In this document: positions 6,402 to 19,154 of the stretch, piece after piece
Numbering within the stretch: the first letter of the stretch is position 1
Layout of the letters: the number at the start of each line of letters is the position of its first letter
From: Nitrospirota bacterium
GTDB taxonomy: Bacteria > Nitrospirota > Thermodesulfovibrionia > UBA6902 > DSMQ01
Reading direction: 5' to 3'
NCBI GenBank assembly: GCA_016208965.1
Contig: JACQXB010000037.1
Coordinates: forward strand, 110 to 64,109
Length of the DNA: 64,000 bases
Program-made: the position numbers and the translations under genes
The notes under the pieces: generated by a model
Seen by the model: the letters and a program-made list of their open reading frames with translations, nothing else
Told to the model about the DNA's origin: nothing
Databases searched by the model: none

Positions 6402-7412
6402 ATGAAACGATTTCTTTGCATAACAATTTCTATAGTGGTTTGTTTTATAGCCTCTCTACTTGGTGCAGAGGAGACCATAAAGGTCCTGATTATTGAAAAG
6501 TTAAAGGAAAATATCCCTCTGGACTCTGCGCAGAAGTTTGGTGGTTTTAACGGAAAACTTTCAATTAACGGGCATGTTTATAAAGGCTCTATGGATGTGA
6601 GAAAGGATGAAAAAGGACTTTATGTTATTAATGAACTTCCGCTTGAGGAATATGTAGAAGGCGTTATTACTGGTGAAGTTGGAAAGAACTGGGATATCGA
6701 GGCACTGAAGGTTCAGGCTGTAATTTCTCGTACCTATGCGAGTTACCATAAAGAACTTAATAAAGATAAAGACTATCACCTTACATCTACTGTTCTTCAT
6801 CAGGTATATCAAGGCGAAAATTCCAGTCCAAGGATTACGCTGGCAGTTAAAGAGACAGAAGGAGAGATACTTACTTATGAAGGCAAGCCCATAGAGGCAT
6901 TCTATCACTCAACATGCGGTGAGAGGACAGAGCTCCCAGATGAGGTGTGGGGGAAAAATCATCCATACCTTAAGTCTGTAGAATGTATTGATGAAAGTTC
7001 ACCTTATTCTAACTGGAAGAGGAAATTTACCCTTGAGGAAATAGAAAGGGCGCTTGGGATAGAGGGCATAAAAGATATAAAGATTTTATCCTTCACATCC
7101 ACAGGGAGGGTCAAGACTATCAAGATAATTAAAGAGGATTCCAAAACATCAGGTGGTATCAGTACACCAGCAACATCAGAAGCGGAGGTTAAGGCAGTAG
7201 ATTTAAGGAAACTCCTTGGATACAAGGAACTTCCGAGCACATTTTTTACAATTGATATTACCGGGCAAGAGATTACTTTTACCGGCAAGGGATATGGTCA
7301 TGGTGTTGGGCTTAGTCAGTGGGGAGCACTTGAGATGGCAAAGAAAGGGAAAACCTATAAGGAGATACTTGAATATTATTATTATGATGTAGTGTTAGAG
7401 AAGAGGCGGTAA
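6402..7412 (+). CDS. SpoIID/LytB domain protein
   Basis: Signal-like N-terminus; VQAVISRTYA, FYHSTCGERTE, GYGHGVGLSQWGA motifs. Confidence 0.8.
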   Translation: MKRFLCITISIVVCFIASLLGAEETIKVLIIEKLKENIPLDSAQKFGGFNGKLSINGHVYKGSMDVRKDEKGLYVINELPLEEYVEGVITGEVGKNWDIEALKVQAVISRTYASYHKELNKDKDYHLTSTVLHQVYQGENSSPRITLAVKETEGEILTYEGKPIEAFYHSTCGERTELPDEVWGKNHPYLKSVECIDESSPYSNWKRKFTLEEIERALGIEGIKDIKILSFTSTGRVKTIKIIKEDSKTSGGISTPATSEAEVKAVDLRKLLGYKELPSTFFTIDITGQEITFTGKGYGHGVGLSQWGALEMAKKGKTYKEILEYYYYDVVLEKRR

Positions 7413-7415
7413 GAG

Positions 7416-8423
7416 GTGAGGCTTTCAGAGTTTGATTATCACTTACCGAGGCAGCAGATTGCGCAATATCCCCTCAGTGAAAGAGATTCATCACGACTCC
7501 TTGTTTTCCATAAAAGACAAAAAAGAATAGAGCACAGAACATTTAAGGAAATAGTTGAGTATTTACAGTCAGGCGATATACTTATTTTAAATAATACAAA
7601 GGTCCTCCCTGTTCGCCTTCATGGCAAGAAGCCAACTGGTGGGAGAGTTGAGGTATTCTTAATTAAAGAGCTCTACCCCAATACATGGAAGGCACTTGTT
7701 AGAGGAGGGCGTAATGGTATAGTGTTATTTAAACACGGTATCTCTGCATATATCAAACGCAATAATGGGACTTTCTATATTAGTTTTTGTGGAGATAATG
7801 TTAAAGAGATTCTAAATAAAATAGCCGTGATGCCACTTCCGCCCTACATAAAAAGAGAGGCAGATGAGTCTGATACACAAAGCTATCAAACCGTATATGC
7901 GGAGAAATATGGCGCTATTGCAGCGCCAACAGCAGGTTTACACTTTACAAAAGAACTCCTTGAAAAGATAAAAAGCAAAGGTGTAGAGGTTTACTCGTTA
8001 ACACTCCATATCGGATATGGCACTTTCAAACCTGTTTTAGTTGATGATATAAAGACACACAGGATGGAAGAGGAATTCTATGAGATGCCCGAGGCGGTGA
8101 TAAATGCAGTAAACAAAGCTAAGGCAGATGGCAGAAGAGTGATAGCAGTTGGAACCAGTGTTACAAGGGCGATTGAGGCATATGCATTAGGTGAAGATAA
8201 AAAAGCAAAGTCAGTGGTGGGGAGCGCATCAATTTTTATTTATCCTGGTTACAGGTTTAAGGTAATAGATGCACTTATAACAAATTTTCATCTACCTAAA
8301 TCAACTCCCATAATGCTTGCATCCGCATTTACAGGACTTACTACACTTAAGGATTTATACAGGGAAGCCTTGAAAGAGGGATATAGATTTTTCTCCTACG
8401 GAGATGCAATGCTAATAATATAG
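7416..8423 (+). CDS. queA: tRNA preQ1(34) S-adenosylmethionine ribosyltransferase-isomerase QueA
   Basis: FDYHLPRQQIAQYP, PLPPYIKR, AAPTAGLHFT, FFSYGDAMLI. Confidence 0.95.
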   Translation: MRLSEFDYHLPRQQIAQYPLSERDSSRLLVFHKRQKRIEHRTFKEIVEYLQSGDILILNNTKVLPVRLHGKKPTGGRVEVFLIKELYPNTWKALVRGGRNGIVLFKHGISAYIKRNNGTFYISFCGDNVKEILNKIAVMPLPPYIKREADESDTQSYQTVYAEKYGAIAAPTAGLHFTKELLEKIKSKGVEVYSLTLHIGYGTFKPVLVDDIKTHRMEEEFYEMPEAVINAVNKAKADGRRVIAVGTSVTRAIEAYALGEDKKAKSVVGSASIFIYPGYRFKVIDALITNFHLPKSTPIMLASAFTGLTTLKDLYREALKEGYRFFSYGDAMLII

Positions 8424-8476
8424 TTTAAGCTACTTATCCGAAAAATAGACATGGAATTATAAAACCGTTGATTTAT

Positions 8477-8632
8477 TTGTCATTGCGAGTCCCGACATTT
8501 CGGGACGTGGCAATCTCAAAAGAGATTCTTCTGCCGAAACTTCGGCATCAGAATGACACTTTGTGTCAGATTGCGGAGTTTATCCCGAGCGGCAAAGCGA
8601 GATTGCTTCTGCCGAAGTTTCGGGATAAGAAG
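8477..8632. repeat. Cluster of MITE-like palindromic units (gtcattgcgag...gcaatc / ccgaaacttcgg types)
   Basis: ttgtcattgcgagtcccgacatttcgggacgtggcaatctc, then ctgccgaaacttcggcatcagaatgac and ctgccgaagtttcgggataag. These short hairpins recur elsewhere in the window. Confidence 0.6.
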
Positions 8633-8659
8633 TAATAACGGTAGAGAAGGAGAACGTAG

Positions 8660-9625
8660 ACGGTTAAGCTTGTATTAGATTTAGAGGAAGAAAAAGACCT
8701 TGCCTCTTTCTATGGCGAAATAGATAAGAATCTTAAAGTCATAGAAGAAGCCTTTGACATCAAGGCATCTCTGAGGGGCAATAAGATACTCATAGAGGGT
8801 GAAGAGAACGGTGTAAGCAGGGCCGGGAGGTTTATTAAAAAATTAAGGGATATAATCGCAGATGGGTACGGTATAAGACCTGATGATATAAGATATGCAC
8901 TCAGGGCCATAAATGAAGCCACCATCAGAGGTGATGAGGCTTCCCTCAAAGAGGTCTTCCTTAATACAATACCTATTCCTTCTAAGAAGAGATTCGTAGT
9001 TCCCCGCTCAGAAAATCAGAGAAGTTATATAGAGGCAATAAGGCAGTATGATATGGTAATAGGAATAGGTCCTGCAGGAACAGGTAAGACATATCTTGCA
9101 GTGGCAATGGCTATAAATGCATTGTTAAAAAAACAGGTAAGCAGAATTATACTTGCAAGGCCTGCTGTAGAGGCAGGCGAGAAGCTCGGCTTTCTGCCGG
9201 GGGATATGTATGAGAAGGTAAACCCATATCTAAGGCCTCTTTATGATGCGCTTTTTGATATGATGGAGTCTGAAAAGGTTTACAGGCTCATTGATAAAGG
9301 AATTATAGAGATAGCACCACTTGCGTTTATGAGGGGAAGGACACTGAATGATTCATTTATAATACTTGATGAAGCACAAAACACCACCTCGGAGCAGATG
9401 AAGATGTATTTGACAAGGCTTGGGTTTAACTCAAAGACAGTTATTACAGGAGATGTAACACAGATTGACCTTCCATCTGGAAGGGCTTCCGGACTTGTAG
9501 ATGCGGAAAAAATACTAAAGGGTATCGAAGGACTATGTTTTATATACTTTAATGAAAAGGATGTTGTAAGGCATAGGCTTGTCCAGGAGGTAATAAAGGC
9601 TTACGAAAGGCATGAGAGGTCATAA
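8660..9625 (+). CDS. phoH: PhoH-like ATPase; N-terminal domain in frame but without a canonical start codon
   Basis: Walker A GPAGTGKTY, ILDEAQN, TGDVTQIDLP. The ORF-track call starts at ATG 9053. However, the frame is open from 8660 and encodes the expected PhoH N-terminal region (LFGEIDKNLKVIEEAF..RGNKILIEGEE-like). Confidence 0.85.
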   Translation, partial: TVKLVLDLEEEKDLASFYGEIDKNLKVIEEAFDIKASLRGNKILIEGEENGVSRAGRFIKKLRDIIADGYGIRPDDIRYALRAINEATIRGDEASLKEVFLNTIPIPSKKRFVVPRSENQRSYIEAIRQYDMVIGIGPAGTGKTYLAVAMAINALLKKQVSRIILARPAVEAGEKLGFLPGDMYEKVNPYLRPLYDALFDMMESEKVYRLIDKGIIEIAPLAFMRGRTLNDSFIILDEAQNTTSEQMKMYLTRLGFNSKTVITGDVTQIDLPSGRASGLVDAEKILKGIEGLCFIYFNEKDVVRHRLVQEVIKAYERHERS

Positions 9626-11117
9626 GATGGATATGAAGAACAATAGCCTTAAATGCAGACCCCAAAACGGCATTAAAAGCAAGGATGTAATAAGGTTTTT
9701 ACTGCTTGTTTGTTTTGTAACACTTATTGGTGTCACCATAATTAGCGAATTATCATTAGGGGTAGTTGTAGGGACATTCCTTATTGTTGCCCTCCTTTTG
9801 CTGATTCTTTACAAAGACATAACGAGATATAAGCCTGCAATCTATAAAGACTATAAGATCCTCTCCCTTATCGGGCTACTGCTTTCAGGTAATCTAATAA
9901 TCAGCAGGGGTTTATATTATATCTTGGAAGGATTTTCAAAGTGGCTTGGTAACTTGGACCCACAACTGGTAACGTATGCCTTGCCGCTTGCGGTTGGGCC
10001 AATGCTAACTGTGCTATTGGTAGATATCCATACCGCAATAGTGTTTTCTGTTATAACCAGCCTTCTTGCAGGTGTGTGGCTTGGAGATTCAATCTACTCC
10101 ATCTTTACCTTTGCATCCGGTCTCACGGCAGCCTTTGGAGTAGTAAGGTGCAAAAGGCGATCAGCTATATGGAGGGCAGGGCTATTTGTTGGACTTGTTT
10201 GTGTATTTACTTCTATAACGATAAACATCCTTAGTGGAAGATTGTTAACCATCAATACGCCTATATCCGCTATTTTTGCTTTCTCCAATGGAATTATAGT
10301 TGCGATACTGGTTTCTGCTCTCCTACCGCTTTTTGAATATTTTTTTAAACTTACAACAGATATAAGCCTCTTAGAGCTTCTGGACCTAAATCAACCCCTC
10401 ATGCGAAATCTTTTGGTAGTTGCTCCTGGCACATATCACCATAGTATCGTAGTAGGGAATTTAGTTGAATCATCAGCAGAGGCAGTTGGTGTAAATCCCC
10501 TTTTGGCAAGGGTTGGTGCTTATTATCATGATATTGGGAAGATGAAAATGCCTGAGTATTTTATCGAAAACCAGACAGGGCTTGTAAGTAAGCATGATAA
10601 ACTCGCACCACACATGAGTAGCATAATATTGCTTTCTCATGTAAAAGAGGGGGTTGAACTCGCAAAACAGCATAAGCTCCCTCAATCTATGATAGACATT
10701 ATTCAACAGCACCACGGGACATCACTTATAACCTATTTTTATCAAAAGGCAAAGGAACAACTTGCTGACTCATCAAATGTGGTATCAGAAGATGACTTCA
10801 GATATCCTGGCCCAAAACCTCAAACAAGGGTAGCCGCCATTGTTCTTATGGCAGACGCCACAGAGGCAGCATCAAGGGTTCTAACAGACCCTACCCCTGC
10901 AAGGGTATCGGCCCTTGTTGATAGGGTTATTAATCATTTTTTTATAGATGGACAGTTGAACGACTGCGAGCTAACTCTTCGCGACCTGCAGGAGATAAAG
11001 AAACATTTCGTTTATATTCTTATTAGTATGTTCCACAGGCGCATTACATATCCTGGTTTTGATATAAAAGATGAAGATTCTAATAAAGAACCAACAGAAA
11101 CACAGGCGACTAAATAA
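9612..11117 (+). CDS. 7-TM receptor-type HD/HDIG phosphohydrolase (PgpH/YqfF-like)
   Basis: Multiple TM helices in residues ~30-250, then HHSIVVGNL, YYHDIGKM and QQHHGTS HD-domain motifs. Position between phoH and ybeY matches Firmicute-like operons. Confidence 0.8.
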   Translation: MRGHKMDMKNNSLKCRPQNGIKSKDVIRFLLLVCFVTLIGVTIISELSLGVVVGTFLIVALLLLILYKDITRYKPAIYKDYKILSLIGLLLSGNLIISRGLYYILEGFSKWLGNLDPQLVTYALPLAVGPMLTVLLVDIHTAIVFSVITSLLAGVWLGDSIYSIFTFASGLTAAFGVVRCKRRSAIWRAGLFVGLVCVFTSITINILSGRLLTINTPISAIFAFSNGIIVAILVSALLPLFEYFFKLTTDISLLELLDLNQPLMRNLLVVAPGTYHHSIVVGNLVESSAEAVGVNPLLARVGAYYHDIGKMKMPEYFIENQTGLVSKHDKLAPHMSSIILLSHVKEGVELAKQHKLPQSMIDIIQQHHGTSLITYFYQKAKEQLADSSNVVSEDDFRYPGPKPQTRVAAIVLMADATEAASRVLTDPTPARVSALVDRVINHFFIDGQLNDCELTLRDLQEIKKHFVYILISMFHRRITYPGFDIKDEDSNKEPTETQATK

Positions 11118-11568
11118 GACAAAGATAGAAAAAGTAGCCAATGGGATTCTTTCACTCTTAGGGCAACATACGAGTGAGCTGAGTATCCTGTTTGTAGGTG
11201 ATAAAAAGATGAAAGAGTTGAATACCATCTACAGGGGTGTGCCAAAAACTACAGACGTCCTTTCATTTCCTCAAATAAGTGAGAAGTTAGAAGTGAAAAG
11301 TAACAAGTTAAAAAGAAGTAAAAAAATAGAAATGTCTTACACTTCCCACTTCTTATTTCCTACTTCTTACTTTTTGTTGGGTGATGTAGTTATAAACGTA
11401 TCTAAGGCAGAAACTCAGGCAAGGGATTTGGGCAGGAATTTTTATGATGAAATTTCACGACTTATGATACACGGCATATTACATCTGCTTGGATATGAAC
11501 ATGAAAGGTGTAGCTATAAGGCTAACATAATGAGAAAGAAAGAAGAGGAGATTTCCAAATGCCATTAA
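11071..11568 (+). CDS. ybeY: rRNA maturation RNase YbeY, carrying an in-frame repeat insertion
   Basis: TDVLSFP, LGDVVI and the HGILHLLGYEH zinc motif. About 30 extra residues (EKLEVKSNKLKRSKKIEMSYTSHFLFPTSYFL) are encoded by the AAGT-heptamer hairpin at 11276-11383. Confidence 0.85.
   Translation: MKILIKNQQKHRRLNKTKIEKVANGILSLLGQHTSELSILFVGDKKMKELNTIYRGVPKTTDVLSFPQISEKLEVKSNKLKRSKKIEMSYTSHFLFPTSYFLLGDVVINVSKAETQARDLGRNFYDEISRLMIHGILHLLGYEHERCSYKANIMRKKEEEISKCH
11276..11383. repeat. Imperfect hairpin of AAGTNNN heptamer words inside ybeY
   Basis: Left arm aagtgagaagttagaagtgaaaagtaacaagttaaaaagaagtaaaaa; right arm cacttcccacttcttatttcctacttcttactttttg, the reverse complement of the same word family. 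Confidence 0.75.
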
Positions 11569-12260
11569 GGAAATTAATTGAGAGCGCCAATCATGCCGTT
11601 AGCGGCATTATTCATACTGCAAAGACACAAAAGCATATGCGTTACCACCTTTATGCGGCATTGTTAATCATAATCCTCAGCCTTGTCTTTGGAGTGGGAT
11701 TATTTGAGTTTATGGTTATCGTAATTCTGGTATCAATAGTGCTTTCGGCAGAGATGTTTAACACCGCGATTGAGGCTGTTATAGATGTACTTTTTAAGGA
11801 ATATGATAGCAAAGCAAAGGCGATTAAAGATATTGCTGCTGGGGCAGTCTTTATAACTGCCATAGGCGCAGCAATAGTGGGCTATATGATACTCCTTAGT
11901 CCCTTTAGGAGTGGTTTTTATGAGGGTCTAACAATAGCCAAACACTCAGGAGAAGGTATAGCCTTTACTTCGCTCGTGATAGTGCTTATCCTGGTGGTTA
12001 TAACAAAGGCATTTTTTGGGAGAGGGACACCTTTGAGGGGAGGGGTGCCCAGCGGTCACGCAGCAATTGCCTTTTCTATATGGACGACGGTCACATTGCT
12101 TTCCGGGAGCTTTATTCTTTCTTTCCTTGTTCTAATCATGGCAATATTAATTGCTCAGAGCAGAGTCAGTATTGGTGTACATAACCCCTGGGAGGTTATC
12201 TTGGGTGCCTTGTTTGGGAGTGTGGTAACTTTCTTTTTATTTAAGTTGTTTCTACCCTGA
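11559..12260 (+). CDS. dgkA: Diacylglycerol/undecaprenol kinase (DgkA) fused to a PAP2-type lipid phosphatase domain
   Basis: N-terminal half has EMFNTAIEAVID (DgkA signature). C-terminal half has PSGH and SRVSIGVHNPWEV (PAP2 motifs C2/C3). Confidence 0.75.
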   Translation: MPLRKLIESANHAVSGIIHTAKTQKHMRYHLYAALLIIILSLVFGVGLFEFMVIVILVSIVLSAEMFNTAIEAVIDVLFKEYDSKAKAIKDIAAGAVFITAIGAAIVGYMILLSPFRSGFYEGLTIAKHSGEGIAFTSLVIVLILVVITKAFFGRGTPLRGGVPSGHAAIAFSIWTTVTLLSGSFILSFLVLIMAILIAQSRVSIGVHNPWEVILGALFGSVVTFFLFKLFLP

Positions 12261-12267
12261 ATTGAAT

Positions 12268-12339
12268 GATTAAGTCAATGAGTCACTCGGTCCTTGAATT
12301 TTTAAATAACTGAGTGACTTAATTGCTTATTGACTTAAT
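12268..12339. terminator. Bidirectional hairpin between convergent dgkA and tRNA-Phe
   Basis: gattaagtcaatgagtcactc ... gagtgacttaattgcttattgacttaat, with an AT-rich loop containing tttttaaat. Confidence 0.5.
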
Positions 12340-12342
12340 AAA

Positions 12343-12418
12343 TGGTGGGCAGTCGCAGAATCGAACTGCGGACACGAGGCTTTTCAGGCCTCTGCTCTAC
12401 CGACTGAGCTAACTGCCC
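12343..12418 (-). tRNA. tRNA-Phe (anticodon GAA), CCA encoded
   Basis: The reverse complement folds as a cloverleaf: GGGCAGT acceptor, GCTC/GAGC D-stem, GAGGC-CTGAAAA-GCCTC anticodon arm, CGCAG-TTCGATT-CTGCG T-arm. Confidence 0.95.
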
Positions 12419-12491
12419 TAACCCTGAATATTTTTCTGTAGTCTCTGAGGTTTTTTTAGACACTTTTTGGCTAACAAAAACTATAGCTACA

Positions 12492-12521
12492 ACTATACCC
12501 CATAGCTTTTTTTATTGTCAA
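12492..12521 (-). promoter_or_regulatory. Candidate sigma70-type promoter for tRNA-Phe
   Basis: The minus strand reads TTGACA (12521-12516), an 18-nt spacer, then TATAGT (12497-12492), ~70 nt upstream of the tRNA 5' end. Confidence 0.35.
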
Positions 12522-12790
12522 CCCTGATAAGTCGTAAACCAAACCCCTGTCTTGTTTCACAAATCATAAGCTGAAAAATTGTACAGTTTTAGTATAAAAT
12601 GTGATTAAATAAAATGCCTCGTAAAAAAGTACATCATAAGCTATCTAATAACTTCTGGATAACAGCGGCATCTTTTCAAACCATTATCTTTTAGAACGTC
12701 TGCCGCAAGCAGGAACAAAAATATGGCATCCAGACGAAGAAGTGTTCTCATGCTCATTGAAAAAATACAAAAACCCTGATACCTTATTAC

Positions 12791-14581
12791 ATGGTTGAAA
12801 AAACTAATCACGAATCAATCTTTCAAAGAAACATACAGAGGGCAGTAGAAAAAGGGTTTATTTCTTTTTCCCCTGATAACTCAAAGATTACATATCACTG
12901 TAGTCGAGACTATACTGCGAGTTTCAAAAAGCCAGAGGAAAAGGTAAGAGCTTCTTATTTTGCCGAACTGGTTTTGGATTATGAATATCCCGATAAGAAG
13001 ATAGACTTTGAAGTCATTGTTCCGAGAAGGAAGCCTGAAGACAGGGCGGATATTGTTATCTATGAAGACGGCGAGATTAAAAAGCCTTATCTGGTTGTTG
13101 AGTGCAAAAAAGACGGCATTTCTGATGCTGAGTTCAAACAGGCGATTGAACAGGCTTTTGGAAACGCAAACAGTTTAAGGGCAAAGTTTGCCGCAGTAAT
13201 TGCCGGCACTACTAAAACAGTCTTTGATATTGCTGGATTTAAGCCGAGTGAGAGAGAAAGAAATGTAGTTTCCGATGTTTCTGTAAGATACGGAAGAACT
13301 CCCAAATATCGATTCGTTAAAGGCGATCCGGCAAGAGATTTAAATATCGTTTCAAGAGAAGAACTTATCAGGGCTTTAGAGAAATCCCACGATACAGTCT
13401 GGCAGGGCGGAAGACTTGCGCCTACGACAGCTTTTGATGAAGTCTCAAAGCTTCTTTTCTGCAAACTGAGAGACGAAAAAGGCACTAAGAAAGGCGATAC
13501 CTACAAATTCCAGATAGGAACTCATGAATCAGCAGAAGACGTTTACGATAGAATTGATTCTATCTATCAAAAGGCAAAAAAGGAAGACTCGGAGGTCTTT
13601 AAAGAAGATATCCGGTTAGATGCAAGGATTGTTTACAATGTGGTTGAGCATCTGCAAGAGTTAGCTATAAATAAGATTGATTTGGATACAAAAGGAATCG
13701 CCTTTGAAAGATTCATGCAGGATTTTTTTAAAGGCAAGATGGGTCAGTTCTTCACCCCGCGCCCGATTGTTGAATTTGCTGTTAAGATGCTCAATCCTGA
13801 AAGAACGGATGTAGTCTTAGACCCTGCCTGTGGAAGCGGCGGCTTTCTGCTTAATGCTATGGATTTAGTCAAAAAATTTGCAGAAGAAAACTATGATGAA
13901 AAAGAAGCATGGGAGCACTGGCATAATTTCGCTATGAATAATCTTTACGGCATTGAGATTAATGACCAGATTGCAAGGGTTTGCAAGATGAACATGATTA
14001 TACATGACGATGGGCATACCAATGTGATAAGCACGGATTCATTAAGAGACGTAAAGGAAATTACTGACATACATAAAGGCTTCAAAAAGGATTATTTCGA
14101 CATCATCCTTACCAATCCACCCTTTGGGGCTACCGTCAAATCAACAGAGAAAAACTATTTAGAAAAGTATGACATTGGAAAGAGCAAGAAAAATCAGAAG
14201 ACAGAGATAATGTTTATTGAGAGGTGCATTGATTTTGTGAAGCCGAAGACGGGTAAGATTGGCATAATATTGCCTGATGGGATTTTAACAAACTCATCTT
14301 TGCAGTATGTGAGAAATTTTATAATGGAGAAATGCCAGATATTAGCCGTTGTTTCCCTGCCTCAATTTGCCTTCACTCATTACGGCGCAGGCGTTAAATC
14401 TTCTCTCGTATTTCTGAGAAGAAAAGGTGAAAATGAAAGATTGACCAGATATCCAATCTTCATGGCAATAGCCGAACACATCGGCTACGACGCCACAGGC
14501 AGAGAAGACCCGATAAATGATTTTGATAAGATTTATGAGGAATATAAAAAGTTTATTGAGCATCATAGTAAAAAGTTTTGA
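12791..14581 (+). CDS. N6-adenine DNA methyltransferase with N-terminal PD-(D/E)xK (HsdR-N-terminal-type) domain; possible BcgI-like RM subunit
   Basis: RADIVIYEDGEIKKPYLVVECKKDG (D...ExK nuclease-like core), DPACGSGGFL (SAM motif I), LTNPPFG (motif IV). Upstream 12614-12790 carries out-of-frame remnants of a typical N-terminal leader. Confidence 0.8.
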   Translation: MVEKTNHESIFQRNIQRAVEKGFISFSPDNSKITYHCSRDYTASFKKPEEKVRASYFAELVLDYEYPDKKIDFEVIVPRRKPEDRADIVIYEDGEIKKPYLVVECKKDGISDAEFKQAIEQAFGNANSLRAKFAAVIAGTTKTVFDIAGFKPSERERNVVSDVSVRYGRTPKYRFVKGDPARDLNIVSREELIRALEKSHDTVWQGGRLAPTTAFDEVSKLLFCKLRDEKGTKKGDTYKFQIGTHESAEDVYDRIDSIYQKAKKEDSEVFKEDIRLDARIVYNVVEHLQELAINKIDLDTKGIAFERFMQDFFKGKMGQFFTPRPIVEFAVKMLNPERTDVVLDPACGSGGFLLNAMDLVKKFAEENYDEKEAWEHWHNFAMNNLYGIEINDQIARVCKMNMIIHDDGHTNVISTDSLRDVKEITDIHKGFKKDYFDIILTNPPFGATVKSTEKNYLEKYDIGKSKKNQKTEIMFIERCIDFVKPKTGKIGIILPDGILTNSSLQYVRNFIMEKCQILAVVSLPQFAFTHYGAGVKSSLVFLRRKGENERLTRYPIFMAIAEHIGYDATGREDPINDFDKIYEEYKKFIEHHSKKF

Positions 14582-14610
14582 AAAGCAGTGGGCAGACAGA
14601 TATTTTTTTA

Positions 14611-14685
14611 TTTGTCATTCCGCACTTGATGCGGAATCCAGTCTCTATTTTTCTGGATTCCTGCTTCCGCAGGAATGACGACAAA
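14611..14685. repeat. MITE-like double hairpin (gtcattcc..ggaatccag / ctggattcc..ggaatgac)
   Basis: tttgtcattccgcacttgatgcggaatccag ... ctggattcctgcttccgcaggaatgacgacaaa. The same family occurs at 15144-15219, 20778-20911 and 51805-51835. Confidence 0.75.
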
Positions 14686-14706
14686 CTAATACTATAGGAA
14701 TAAAGT

Positions 14707-16108
14707 ATGCAATGCTTTGTTGTCTGGAGTAACGAGATTGAAGGGAGATTAGACCCTAATCTTTACGAGCCTAAATACAAAAAACTTTCAACAAATTTAA
14801 AAAAGATTAAATGTCAGGAGTTGGGCGATATAATTGCTTTTTCAAATGAGACATGGGAACAAAAAACTTTTTTTGGTGACAAGTTTCCTTATATTGAGAT
14901 AAGTGAGATTGATGTTATTTCAGGCGAAATTAGAAACATTATTTACTATGATAAAAAAGAAGCTCCAAGTAGAGCCAGAATGGTAGTAAGAGAAGACGAC
15001 ATAATTGTTTCTACAACAAGACCACATAGAGGAGCAATTTCTTTAATAGATAAGTCAAAAGATGGTTTTATTGCTTCAACAGGCTTTGCTGTATTAAGAG
15101 AATTAAACCTGAATCCTGCGTGAAAAATCATAATTTTACCTTTCTGGATTCCCGCTTACTGATTGCGGGAATGACAACCAAATAAATGTCATGCCCGAAG
15201 TTTTTAATCGGGCATCCAGTTCTTTTTCTATCTGCTTTAATGAATTAAAAAAAATAATTATCCCCCTCTCTCCCCTTCCCATCCAAACCCAAATCGTTGA
15301 CATTATGCGGTTTGCATATAATCAGAAGAAAGAGAAAGAGGCAGAAGCACAGAAGCTATTGGATTCGATTGACGGATACGTGCTTGATGAGTTGGGAATA
15401 AAACTGCCGGAGGTTGAGGACAAGATGTGCTTTGTTGTTGACTCTGAAGAAGTGCGGGACAATAGAGCGGATGCTTATTATTATCAGCCAAAATTTGAAG
15501 AACTGGCAAAGGCGATAGAGAGAGGACGATACGGAATTGAAAAATTGAAGAAGTTTATAACAAAAATCCATTATGGTGTTTCTATCAAGAATGTCTATGT
15601 TGATGAAGGAATACCCCTGCTTAGGATATTAAATTTAAAACCTAATAAAATAGACCTGACAGCTGTTGTCAACCTTGAAGAATCAAAGAGAAAAGAAATT
15701 GGCAATGGTTTTGTTTACGAAGGCGACTTGTTAATTTCCAGAAGTGGGTCTGTTGGAATTGTTGCTGTTGTTCCAAAAGAAGCAGATGGTTTTGCCTTTG
15801 GCTCGTTCATGATTAAGTTTTGTATTAATGATGAAATAAGTAAAGAATATGTCTCCTTATGGCTAAATAACTACTTTACTAAACTGCTAACAGAGAGAGA
15901 AAAAATAGGAGCAATACAAGGCAATATAACAATATCAACTATAGAAAACTTTCAAATCCCTCTTCCCTCTCTCGAAGTCCAGAACAAAATCGCTGATGAA
16001 GTTAAAAGACGAATCTCTGAAGCTGAAAGGCTTAAAGCGGAAGCAAATAAGATTATTGAAGAAGCTAAAAAAAAGGTTGAAAAGATAATATTTGGAGGTA
16101 TGATTTAA
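14707..16108 (+). pseudogene. HsdS-type specificity subunit, interrupted by a MITE (two ORFs 14707-15123 and 15191-16108)
   Basis: The first ORF is TRD1 (STTRPHRGAISLI, ASTGFAVLR) and stops at 15121-15123. The MITE lies at 15144-15219. The second ORF resumes at IIPLSPLPIQTQIV (central conserved region), then TRD2 and PLPSLEVQNKIADEV. About 40 residues of the TRD1 tail appear to be lost. Confidence 0.7.
15144..15219. repeat. MITE-like double hairpin inserted in the S-subunit gene
   Basis: ctggattcccgcttactgattgcgggaatgac ... gtcatgcccgaagtttttaatcgggcatccag. Confidence 0.75.
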
Positions 16109-16584
16109 TGCTCACTCAGTCTGAAGCAGACGCTTTATTTGCAATGCCTAAGAAACCTAAGTCAAACGATCCTGTTACATTTCCTCATGCTGGAGGAAAA
16201 CTGCTTGTAGAGTTTGTTTCTTTAGACGACAGAGAGATTTTTCTTTTCAATATTAATAGGGCGAGCATAGAGGTTTCTAAATGTACTTATCAAAAACGTG
16301 CCCGCCATGTAGAAATCTTAAGACGACTGGATATTGGTGGTTCTCCGCATCCTAACCCAGAGGTTGAGACTGTTCCTTTAGATTTCCTTTCTCCCTATAA
16401 TGGAGTTGAAATGCCATGTCCTCACCTGCATATCTATGTTGAGGGTTTTGCCGATAAGTGGGCTATTCCCGCACCTGCGGAGTTGTTAAATTCAAATAAC
16501 GACTTATATGCCACTATGGAAAGTTTTTTAAAATATTGTAATGTAACAGAGATGCCGAATATAGAAAGAGGGTTATTCCTATGA
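16108..16584 (+). CDS. Hypothetical protein (158 aa), translationally coupled to the S gene
   Basis: ATG overlaps the S-gene stop (TAATG). Motif region GGSPHPNPE...CPHLHIYVEGFADKWAIP. I cannot confidently name a family from the sequence. Confidence 0.6.
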   Translation: MLTQSEADALFAMPKKPKSNDPVTFPHAGGKLLVEFVSLDDREIFLFNINRASIEVSKCTYQKRARHVEILRRLDIGGSPHPNPEVETVPLDFLSPYNGVEMPCPHLHIYVEGFADKWAIPAPAELLNSNNDLYATMESFLKYCNVTEMPNIERGLFL

Positions 16585-17348
16585 GTGCATTAGATTGCTA
16601 TCAACTTGTTGATCTATACGCAAACTGGCTTAAAGAGAAAGTTAAGCTGAAAACAATAGGTGATATATGTGAGCTTACAACTCCTTTTGTCGATCGGCAT
16701 AACGATTATTTGCAGATATATGTTAAAGCTATTCCCGCAGGGATGTTGTTAACAGATGACGGATATACGATCCGAGATTTAGAAATGAGCGGTTTTGAAT
16801 TCAATACGGAACGTAGAAAAAATGAGCTAAAAATTATTCTAAATGGGTTTGGGGTAAATCTTCATGGAGACAGTCTTGAAGTAGAAGCACGTCCTGATAA
16901 TTTTCCACAAAAAAAACATAACCTGCTGCAGACAATGCTTGTAATAAACGACCTTTTTGTATTAGCACCTCCAAAAGTCGCAAGCTTTTTCAGGGAAGAC
17001 GTTGAGAGATTTCTATCATTACATGATATCAGGTTTACAAAGGATATTAATTTTATTGGTAAAAGCGGCTTTAATCATCACTTTGATTTTGTAATACCTC
17101 CTTCTAAGAAAGAACCCGAGAGAGTCTTACGGACAATCAATAATCCTACTAAAAATAATGTCTCGGCTATAATTTTCTCCTGGGATGATGCCAGAAAAGT
17201 AAGATCAGAAAATTCAGTTGCTATAGCTGTACTCAATGACCAGGATAAAGAAATTACTCCTGACGCCATACATGCCTTAAAGGCTTATGAAATAGAGCCA
17301 ATAGCATGGAGCAAGCGAGATAAATATATTGATAAGCTTACTGCATAA
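16581..17348 (+). CDS. Hypothetical protein (255 aa), resembles DUF1828 (N) + DUF1829 (C) architecture
   Basis: ATGA overlap with the upstream gene. TTPFVDRHNDYLQIYV, DGYTIRDLEMSG, FPQKKHNLLQTMLVINDLF and GKSGFNHHFDFVIPP match my recollection of DUF1828/1829 proteins; this is unverified. Confidence 0.55.
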   Translation: MSALDCYQLVDLYANWLKEKVKLKTIGDICELTTPFVDRHNDYLQIYVKAIPAGMLLTDDGYTIRDLEMSGFEFNTERRKNELKIILNGFGVNLHGDSLEVEARPDNFPQKKHNLLQTMLVINDLFVLAPPKVASFFREDVERFLSLHDIRFTKDINFIGKSGFNHHFDFVIPPSKKEPERVLRTINNPTKNNVSAIIFSWDDARKVRSENSVAIAVLNDQDKEITPDAIHALKAYEIEPIAWSKRDKYIDKLTA

Positions 17349-17415
17349 CAAAGTTCATAAGAGTTTGTGTGAACTTTGCGGGTCAGGAACTTTGTGGGGT
17401 CATCAGGAACTTTGT

Positions 17416-17550
17416 GGGGTCAGACACCAAAATTGACATTTTACAAGATGATAAAACACACCCCTTAATCCCCTCTTGATAAAGGGGAAGTAATAACAAA
17501 GGCAGGTACATTATCCGAAGGGCAGAGGAAATTGAGATTGTGGAGGGAAA
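17416..17550. repeat. Island direct repeat, copy A (preceded by a 2x20-nt tandem ggtcaggaactttgtgg)
   Basis: The ~113-nt core ggggtcagacaccaaaattgacattttacaag...ggcaggtacattatccgaagggcagagg differs from copy C by 4 substitutions and a 1-nt indel (by eye). It ends gagattgagattgtggagggaaa. Confidence 0.85.
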
Positions 17551-17553
17551 TAA

Positions 17554-17604
17554 ATGAAACTCGATCAAATCGGCTTCTGGTCTGAAATCAAACTGGGGGA
17601 ATAA
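17554..17604 (+). pseudogene. 16-codon ORF MKLDQIGFWSEIKLGE, probable 5' stub of a lost gene
   Basis: It starts 7 nt after the GGAGGG of repeat copy A. The GxWSxxKL N-terminus resembles TcmP-type partner proteins from memory. It is stopped after 16 codons. Confidence 0.3.
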
Positions 17605-17690
17605 AAGGGGAGGTATATTTTCTGAAGGGAGATTGGGTTGGAAGATTAGAAAAAGCATAGACTGTGATATTATAGAATATAGAAATAAAA

Positions 17691-17897
17691 GTGAGGGGGT
17701 GGTTTAAAGTGGGCACTGCTACAGCAAAAAAAATAAATCCTGAAGATTTTATCCTCTCTGCGCTTTCTCCTGAGGACAGGCTTAACGCCGCTTTCAAAGT
17801 TGCAGGCGAGGCATTTAAAAAGACCACATTGACAATGAAAGACATTGATAAAGCAGCTAAAACTGTGAGGAGAAGAATCTACGGAAAAAAGAAGTAA
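17691..17897 (+). CDS. Putative antitoxin upstream of PIN toxin
   Basis: Small ORF ending 20 nt before the PIN ORF. The likely start is GTG 17709, after GAGGGGG. No recognisable family. Confidence 0.4.
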   Translation: MRGWFKVGTATAKKINPEDFILSALSPEDRLNAAFKVAGEAFKKTTLTMKDIDKAAKTVRRRIYGKKK

Positions 17898-18300: not shown

Positions 18301-18340
18301 TACTTTCATGTGTTTTTCAAAAAAAGGAGCCTGGGATTAA

Positions 18341-18403
18341 ACAAAGGGGACAGGCAGATTATCTGAGAGAGCGGAGAGGAGATTGAGATTGTGGAGGGGA
18401 AAA
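18341..18403. repeat. Island direct repeat, partial copy B (3' module only)
   Basis: acaaaggggacaggcagattatctgagagagcggagaggagattgagattgtggaggggaaa aligns to the 3' third of copies A and C. Confidence 0.7.
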
Positions 18404-18440: not shown

Positions 18441-18746
18441 ATGGGCAGGACGAAGATAGAAATACCAGAGGAAAAAATAGCAGAATTTTGTAAAAGGAAT
18501 CATATCCTCAAGTTGTCACTTTTTGGTTCTGTTCTCCACGGCGATTTCAGGCCGGACAGCGATATTGATTTGCTTGTTGAATTTGATCCTGATCATATCC
18601 CGGGTTTCTTTAAGCTTGCTCATATGGAACGAGAACTTTCAGGGATTATGGGGAAAAAAGTAGATTTAAGAACACCTCACGAATTGAGTAAATATTTCCG
18701 TGATGATGTTCTCTCCGAAGCAGAGGTGCAGTATGCCGAAAGATGA
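18441..18746 (+). CDS. MNT-type nucleotidyltransferase antitoxin (MntA)
   Basis: [22 protein letters not shown] (GSx10-12DxD nucleotidyltransferase motif), ~100 aa. Confidence 0.85.
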
Positions 18747-18852
18747 CCTTGTTCGGATGCGCCACATCCTTGATGCTGCCAGAGAAGCGTTATCATTTAC
18801 GGCAGGGAAAACAAGAGTTGACCTGAATGCTAATCGTATGCTGGTGTTGTAA
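18733..18852 (+). pseudogene. HepT (DUF86/HEPN) toxin, 5' fragment only (39 codons)
   Basis: ATG overlaps the MNT stop by 14 nt. [22 protein letters not shown] is a typical DUF86 N-terminus. It stops at 18850-18852, 12 nt before repeat copy C. The RxxxxH HEPN motif is absent. Confidence 0.6.
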
Positions 18853-18864
18853 AAATGTAAAAAT

Positions 18865-19025
18865 GGGGTCAGGCACCAAAATTGACATTTCACAAGATGA
18901 TAAAACACACCCCTTAATCCCCTCTTGATAGAGGGGAAGTAATAACAAAGGCAGGTACATTATCTGAAGGGGCAGAGGGCAGGAGCCTGCCCGCGGTAGG
19001 CAGGAGATTGCGATTGTGGAGGGAA
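18865..19025. repeat. Island direct repeat, copy C (with a 25-nt GC-rich hairpin insertion)
   Basis: Same core as copy A. The extra gcaggagcctgcccgcggtaggcag precedes gagattgcgattgtggagggaaa. Confidence 0.85.
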
Positions 19026-19154
19026 AGTTCATCATAAATTTCAGGATTTAGCTAAATGAAAAAGAGCAAAATCATTAAACCCATAGACTCAACGCATCAA
19101 AACATAAAACTGACCCTTGACCAAGCATATTTTTAACAGGTTTAGAAAATTGTT

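Follow-up and report, generated by a model that had tools for sequence, protein, structure and literature searches.

The window, a 64,000-nucleotide stretch of contig JACQXB010000037.1 from a Nitrospirota bacterium, contains two small overlapping genes, here designated A and B, which by their profile matches are an intact copy of PDC-M24, a widespread, mobile two-gene cassette catalogued as an anti-phage candidate. The initial annotation had described the pair as unknown, but it matches the PADLOC candidate PDC-M24 of Payne, Hughes, Fineran & Jackson (2024, bioRxiv 10.1101/2024.01.29.577857). The 145 PDC candidates were derived from their position inside BREX, DISARM and type I restriction-modification (R-M) systems ("guilt-by-embedding"), and supplementary file 8 of that study gives cassette CAS_00098 (FAM_00129>>FAM_00065) as "Assign as candidate PDC-M24". 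A literature search retrieved no experimental assay of PDC-M24, although other PDC systems have been assayed. The pair itself is therefore already catalogued; new here are the fold assignment for protein B, the lists of conserved residues, the exclusion of several families for protein A and an asymmetry in the loss of the two genes.

The assignment is based on matches over nearly the full length of both proteins. Residues 1-157 of A aligned to positions 1-145 of the 146 in the PADLOC profile PDC-M24A (PDLC04538, E 4.8e-50), and residues 6-255 of B to positions 4-255 of the 255 in PDC-M24B (PDLC04539, E 5.3e-103). The gene arrangement is likewise that of PDC-M24, with B following A on the plus strand and overlapping it by 4 nt. 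In Pfam, A matched DUF6978 (PF22398, E 1.7e-37), and B matched DUF1828 (PF08861, E 5.8e-26) followed by DUF1829 (PF08862, E 1.2e-32); no NCBIfam model was found for either protein. No structural difference from PDC-M24 was seen. The window copy belongs to a Nitrospirota-type subfamily with a longer loop in A between the H-x-N-P and P-H-L-H motifs. It shares with PDC-M24 the embedding in an R-M operon but stands behind a broken MAD2/MAD5-like pair of modification (M) and specificity (S) genes and not inside a complete type I system. The start codon of A shares 1 nt with the TAA stop codon of the upstream hsdS fragment (ttTAATGc), and a scan for promoters and terminators gave no more sites than shuffled sequence. 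Both open reading frames (ORFs) are intact while the S gene upstream is disrupted, as had been noted before. The coordinates are collected in Table 1.

Table 1. Positions of the A-B cassette, of the two domains of B and of the genes upstream, numbered along the window.
Feature	Position	Strand	Basis and remarks
Gene A	16108..16584	+	ORF, 158 aa; DUF6978 / PDC-M24A
Gene B	16581..17348	+	ORF, 255 aa; DUF1828+DUF1829 / PDC-M24B; two domains
A/B stop/start overlap (ATGA)	16581..16584	+	sequence cctATGAgt
B N-terminal domain, DUF1828, residues 1-130	16581..16970	+	alpha+beta; secondary structure of the model
B C-terminal domain, DUF1829, residues 132-255	16974..17345	+	PD-(D/E)xK-type fold (predicted); model and Foldseek
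Methyltransferase (N6-adenine), 596 aa	12791..14581	+	Pfam; HSDR_N_2 E 2.7e-14; not part of the pair
hsdS / MAD5-like specificity gene, disrupted	14707..16108	+	two frames, 14707-15123 and 15191-16108
tRNA gene	12346-12418	-	Rfam RF00005, 69.5 bits; directly upstream of the methylase

PDC-M24 is common and occurs in bacteria, archaea and temperate phages. Word-indexed homologue searches returned 744 matches for B and 344 for A, and a profile of A detected 1,527 clusters at 50% identity. A pattern scan with two short peptide patterns of B, covering one genome per species, yielded at least 592 loci, the best 80 of which were analysed. Identity of B ranged from 47 to 89% in these 80 loci, which were distributed over about 20 lineages: Nitrospirota, Bacillota, Chloroflexota, Bacteroidota, Planctomycetota, Acidobacteriota, alpha-, beta-, gamma- and "delta"-proteobacteria and several candidate phyla among the bacteria, and Methanosarcinales, Methanophagales and Methanospirillum among the archaea. 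Yet the B gene was present in just 6 of 64 genomes of the window's own order and in none of four genomes of the same family, and its distribution is consequently regarded as patchy and horizontal.

The internal architecture of the pair is well preserved. In about 63 of 74 assessable genome loci, B was directly preceded by A in the same orientation, and at the junction the genes overlapped by 4 nt in 47 of 66 other loci and by 1 nt in five. The surroundings, on the other hand, are varied. A type I M, S or restriction (R) gene was detected with custom profiles within 10 kb on the same strand in 41 of the 80 loci; the genes were typically arranged as M-S-(A-B)-R, sometimes with codon-overlapping junctions. 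The nearest large gene upstream encoded HsdS in 13 of 68 loci, and the nearest large gene downstream an HsdR-type protein (HSDR_N, SWI2_SNF2, T1RH-like_C) in 14-17 of 72. Other large neighbours were nucleotidyltransferases, Abi_C, Mrr, OLD/AAA_15, Fic or genes unrelated to defence. One pair (locus L001) had a type III-like Res on one side and the corresponding methylase on the other, and another (L004) stood behind a ParA-like gene with no R-M partner. Staphylococcus phage 37 and Lactobacillus prophage Lj965 have more distant copies (26-35% identity) in their lysogeny modules, between repressor and integrase and beside a superinfection-exclusion gene; in both, the gene of roughly 150 codons just upstream of B is also a DUF6978 member. 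Even the closest relatives of B, which are 87-89% identical (L007-L009, G202 and G204), have neighbourhoods that differ from that of the window. In L007, a Thermodesulfovibrio yellowstonii metagenome-assembled genome (MAG), the 89%-identical pair lies between genes for an OLD-family ATPase-TOPRIM and an HsdR-like protein (6903-17788), with two methylase-containing proteins of roughly 1,030 residues nearby, in an island quite unlike that of the window. Thus, the pair sits preferentially inside or beside R-M operons and in prophage lysogeny modules, and the variety of contexts together with the conserved pair architecture demonstrates that the cassette is an autonomous, independently travelling module whose gene order and overlap are kept across bacteria, archaea and temperate phages. 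The earlier proposal of a stand-alone two-gene module is borne out by these many unrelated contexts.

To assign a fold to B, an AlphaFold2 model was built on an alignment of 126 sequences (mean predicted local distance difference test score, pLDDT, 90.6). The model consists of two domains, and the linker between them (residues 131-135) is of low confidence. In the C-terminal domain, helix 132-147 is followed by strands 153-159, 165-172 and 181-186, helix 191-205 and strand 213-218, an order of elements that corresponds to the alpha-beta-beta-beta-alpha-beta core of PD-(D/E)xK nucleases. Foldseek searches of the Protein Data Bank (PDB) gave as best matches NucS/EndoMS (2vld, E 4.4e-4), Can2 (7bdv, E 5.5e-4; also 8q44), VC1899 (1xmx, E 1.2e-3) and Card1 (6xl1, E 2.3e-3), the whole group ranging from E 4e-4 to 1e-2 with probabilities of 0.97-1.0. 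Weaker matches included Kpn2I, the nuclease domain of an R2 retrotransposon, Bax1, MspJI and McrC (PDB entries including 6ekr, 4f0p and 6ut7). All of these named proteins belong to the PD-(D/E)xK superfamily, and several share the layout of a sensor or binding domain plus a nuclease; as in B, NucS, Can2, Card1 and VC1899 have an N-terminal binding or sensing domain and then a C-terminal restriction-endonuclease fold with Asp and Glu. TM-scores were 0.26-0.38, so that about one domain superposes at best. B has no detectable sequence similarity to these four proteins, and PDB sequence searches with A and B, as single sequences and as profiles, returned nothing meaningful. Among predicted viral structures (BFVD), the best match to B was a phage DUF1828 protein (1.3e-13), followed by weaker matches to Endonuclease I, Mrr-like and "restriction enzyme" proteins. 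By this model, the C-terminal domain of B is folded like a PD-(D/E)xK nuclease and its acidic residues are conserved, in agreement with the earlier suggestion of a nuclease-fold protein.

The predicted active site, however, appears to be non-canonical. The alignment showed strong conservation of E139 (119 of 126 sequences) and D140 (125) in helix 1, of D169 in strand 2 (121, plus three Glu) and of E180 (124) and R181 (125) at the start of strand 3, as well as of K/R161 (121), N219 (125) and D220 (all 126). At position 182, which corresponds to the lysine of the ExK motif, Ile (78), Val (36), Leu (8), Phe (2) or Ala (1) was found, but never Lys or Arg. R184 is variable (R/Q/K), and E178 of the window protein is not conserved. 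The string GKSGFNHHFDFVIPPSKKEPERVLRTIN, in which a D...E-x-(R/K) spacing had been recognized, is present, and D169, E180 and R181 within it are conserved, whereas a conserved E-x-(K/R) does not exist; the acidic positions of the supposed D/E/K signature are therefore nearly invariant among homologues while its basic position is hydrophobic. With the fold and the acidic residues retained and the lysine slot occupied by hydrophobic residues, the invariant R181 or K/R161 might substitute for the lysine.

The N-terminal domain of B probably binds nucleic acid or acts as a sensor. In contrast to the two-domain nucleases matched by Foldseek, it is not a Rossmann-like CARF domain. It carries an invariant polar cluster (D38, R39, H40, N41, D42, D59, D60, D66, K112, H113, Q117, N123 and D124), and weak BFVD matches of the KilA-N/Bro-N type at ranks 20-33, probably to this domain, are to be taken as a lead only.

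Protein A could be assigned to none of the families considered. Across 90 homologues, Q4, K15, F45, R64, L71, H81, N83, H106, H108, Y110, E112, W118 and C144 are invariant, and the motifs P-H-x-N-P and P-H-L-H-x-Y-x-E are separated by a loop of variable length. The block GGSPHPNPE...CPHLHIYVEGFADKWAIP, previously pointed out as conserved, His/Cys-rich and possibly metal binding, is indeed present and its H-x-H is invariant, but a Cys-based metal cluster is unlikely as C144 is the sole invariant cysteine. Target alignments for the HIT, DUF4160, Y1 transposase and TumE comparisons were built from genomes of the same phylum. Against 30 proteins of the HIT hydrolase/transferase family (PF01230), hhalign gave probabilities of 0.5-4.4% over 13-21 columns, and the third His of the HIT motif H-phi-H-phi-H-phi-phi is replaced by the invariant Tyr; DUF4160 (PF13711) and the IS200-type HUH endonuclease / Y1 transposase family (PF01797) each reached about 1% over 13-19 columns. 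The hhalign comparison with TumE (DUF6516) was weak but colinear over most of the protein (probability 1.8-2.6%, P = 0.018-0.03). Searches with hmmsearch in both directions gave E-values of at least 0.04 in tiny databases, and eight diverse A proteins had no match to PF20126 (TumE/DUF6516) at E <= 10. Since only local H-x-H or weak colinear matches with probabilities below 5% were obtained, we assign A to none of these four families. Among the 150 best representatives of the 1,527 clusters, longer A homologues had no second Pfam domain, with the exception of P0313 of the representative library. In this protein of 243 residues, DUF6978 (residues 4-120) is apparently fused to the beginning of DUF1828 (178-221), which could be a Rosetta-stone link between A and B if genuine but may be a frameshift or contig-end artefact.

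Both genes are clearly under purifying selection. Comparison with relatives that are 87-89% identical in B and 78-81% in A gave ratios of nonsynonymous to synonymous substitution rates (dN/dS) of 0.10-0.12 for A and 0.03-0.04 for B, at dS values near saturation. The two genes differ in how often they are lost. Among about 74 assessable loci selected for B, A was absent from six and frameshifted, truncated or replaced in five, whereas in metagenome contigs selected for A, a full-length B came immediately after it in 66 of the 67 cases that could be assessed (Fisher's exact test, p = 0.005). Hence, B can persist without A, but A hardly ever without B. As the two sets of loci come from different collections and each was chosen for an intact query gene, this asymmetry is suggestive only; it fits B working alone with A as an accessory as well as A being toxic unless B is present.

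Some of the loci that deviate from the pair architecture deserve description. B occurs without any A in L008, L023, L077, L083 and L085. In a Candidatus Binatia MAG (L053), a 16%-identical DUF1828-type paralogue occupies the place of A directly upstream of B (9108-9890), and 24 C-terminal residues of A are left as a remnant (9906-9977); in the paralogue, G-[KR]-S-G and Asp are retained at their positions but E180/R181 are gone. In a Nitrospirae MAG (L067), the slot of A between hsdS and B is filled by an ORF of 122 codons (9584-9952), which matches nothing in Pfam, does not resemble A and may encode an alternative partner.

Taken together, we favour, with about even confidence, a reading in which A and B form a self-contained, co-translated anti-phage cassette, with B as DNA-directed effector and A gating or targeting it. 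Both proteins would be made together by translational coupling and act as one unit. The DUF1828 domain of B would bind or sense nucleic acid, which would then be cut by the C-terminal domain via D169/E180 and a non-canonical basic residue (R181 or K161, for example). Protein A, which is small and His-rich, would gate, target or activate B. In the window, the cassette would merely be carried along by a decayed methylase-specificity operon, at its 3' end, without being its restriction subunit.

Several points weigh against this reading. The defence role rests on guilt by association, as no member of PDC-M24 has been tried against phage. The canonical (D/E)xK lysine of B is replaced by a hydrophobic residue, and E180 is Thr in the phage homologue of Lj965, so that B could be a non-catalytic DNA binder. 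The survival of B without A, or beside a broken A, also fits A as the dangerous part of the pair. Finally, the closest experimental reference, the validated two-gene system HipAD / DS-6 (DefensePredictor; Science 2026, PMC13092281), carries DUF1829 in its second protein, as does PDC-M24, and has the same order of a variable first gene followed by the DUF1829 protein. It differs from PDC-M24 in that the first gene encodes the kinase HipA and not a DUF6978 protein, and in that DUF1829 is joined to DUF3037 instead of DUF1828. In HipAD the kinase is the effector, and DUF1829 resides in the non-toxin partner, DS-6B.

The main rival is the opposite assignment of roles, in which the toxic effector would be A, perhaps distantly related to the translation-targeting TumE/DUF6516 toxins, and B a neutralising partner and phage sensor whose nuclease fold would serve DNA binding only. 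We regard it as unlikely, although the gene-loss asymmetry and the missing lysine speak for it and it would mirror DS-6B beside the HipA kinase. TumE, known from the TumE-TumA system (DUF6516, PF20126; Durairaj et al. 2023, PMC10584680), resembles A in being a small alpha+beta protein of similar size encoded in a bicistronic operon, and has been described as two helices on a seven-stranded sheet with no PDB neighbour. The alignments of A and TumE have the colinear motifs K-x-x-Y ... R-x-D ... P-H ... P-H-x-H in common, and the His-rich series reads R-Y-D-N-x-P-H ... F-P-H-H-K-H in TumE and R-L-D-x-x-G-x-P-H ... P-H-L-H-x-Y in A. However, TumE is usually encoded downstream of its partner while A lies upstream of B, and the profile comparisons described above lend the link no statistical support. 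Moreover, B is more constrained than A (dN/dS 0.03 vs 0.10-0.12) and has enzyme-like invariant residues in both domains, which is unusual for an antitoxin, and the two locus sets behind the loss asymmetry come from different collections, each selected for an intact query gene.

Quite improbable, in our opinion, is a selfish or addiction cassette without a role in defence, which would be toxin-antitoxin-like or of a homing type, lodge in R-M operons and prophages and stabilise itself or its island. The patchy, horizontally spread distribution and the tight two-gene architecture are compatible with such an element, as is the island of the window copy, which adjoins a tRNA gene and also holds local repeats and the toxin-antitoxin modules PIN and MntA. 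Profile searches of Pfam and NCBIfam nevertheless detected no transposase or integrase domain in either protein, and both the repressor-integrase slot next to superinfection-exclusion genes and the embedding in R-M, BREX and DISARM loci are contexts that have repeatedly yielded true defence systems.

The initial annotation had also considered that B might supply the missing restriction activity; B, with A, would then be the restriction endonuclease of the adjacent M and S genes in a new R-M-like system and replace HsdR. The location of the four genes on one strand with overlapping junctions, the absence of an HsdR beside M-S in the window and the nuclease fold of B would fit this idea, but it is largely refuted by the contexts of other copies and we consider it very improbable: in at least 14 loci hsdS lies on one side of the pair and a full-length hsdR on the other, the type I system keeping its own HsdR; in L001 the pair is flanked by type III res and mod; L004 and the phages offer it no R-M partner; and copies 87-89% identical occupy other neighbourhoods. 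The methylases near other copies resemble that of the window in the catalytic domain only and not in the N-terminal region. Within the window, the methylase has an HSDR_N_2 nuclease-like domain of its own at the N-terminus with a D...VVECK motif, the specificity gene is broken while A-B is intact and under purifying selection, and B lacks the canonical catalytic lysine of ExK. Neither A nor B contains a superfamily 2 helicase/translocase motor (ResIII/DEAD/SWI2_SNF2) at E <= 0.1, by which both were rejected as HsdR; other ResIII-type genes of this genome are on different contigs.

The stretch between the tRNA gene and lnt (19155) has the appearance of a small defence island flanked by a tRNA gene, and its G+C content of 0.33-0.39 is slightly below that of the flanks. 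It contains the MAD2-like M gene, the broken S gene, PDC-M24, a PIN toxin-antitoxin pair and a MntA-like nucleotidyltransferase. The best NCBIfam match of the methylase was MAD2 (NF047738) with 311.6 bits against a cut-off of 720, and that of the S fragment was MAD5 with 84 bits against 400. No OLD-like ATPase-nuclease or other mad gene was found between the tRNA gene and lnt. Since both scores are below the family cut-offs and mad3, mad4 and mad6-8 are absent, membership of M and S in MADS was rejected; they may represent a methylase-specificity pair of the MAD2/MAD5 type that is reduced or distinct. A 67-nt palindromic insert at 15124-15190, which contains GGATTCCCGCTTACTGATTGCGGGAATGAC, interrupts the hsdS gene. 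The end of this insert forms an 83% inverted repeat with sequence of the M-S spacer (14599-14621 and 15168-15190), and the first target-recognition fragment is consequently bracketed by inverted copies, which could be insertions resembling miniature inverted-repeat transposable elements or the relic of an invertible hsdS segment.

Downstream of the cassette, a 108-nt direct repeat (17415-17522 and 18864-18971, 96% identical), three copies of a 32-nt repeat and a perfect 20-nt tandem duplication (17383-17422) were observed. Of the repeat regions (17383-17550, 18340-18401 and 18864-19026), the first lies behind PDC-M24, the second behind the PIN pair and the third behind the MntA gene, giving a cassette-like layout, and no further copies were found elsewhere in the window. 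Within 18441-18852 (plus strand), the MntA-like gene (NF047752, E 4e-12) is followed only by an ORF of 50 codons (18700-18852, containing RHILDAAREA), which may be what is left of its HepT/HEPN toxin partner after truncation by the repeat at 18864. The analysis removes the idea of a new kind of R-M system in the window; the region holds a decayed M-S pair, an intact PDC-M24 and toxin-antitoxin modules in a tRNA-flanked island.

For PDC-M24 as a family, the analysis adds a confident structural assignment of B, with a binding domain followed by a restriction-endonuclease fold that has a non-canonical predicted active site. The invariant residues of A and B are listed for mutagenesis, and the asymmetric loss of the two genes bears on which partner endangers the cell. 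The niche between hsdS and hsdR is shared with the anticodon nuclease PrrC of the EcoprrI type Ic R-M locus, likewise an extra defence gene in this position and cited as the archetype of an R-M-embedded system (Payne et al. 2024, bioRxiv 10.1101/2024.01.29.577857); PrrC differs in being a single ABC-ATPase/RNase protein with no sequence or domain similarity to PDC-M24. By analogy, and as a speculation that we rate as distinctly unlikely, PDC-M24 might provide a PrrC-like back-up ('guard') layer for R-M, in which the DUF1828 domain of B, or A, would monitor the type I or type III complex or escaping phage DNA and then unleash an effector. This effector could be the Lys-less PD-(D/E)xK domain of B, or A as a His/Tyr/Glu enzyme, possibly distantly related to TumE and with a fold not yet in the PDB. 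If true, a guard role would explain the frequent codon-to-codon splice of the cassette between hsdS and hsdR, and DUF1829 would be a portable sensor or partner module common to PDC-M24 and HipAD.

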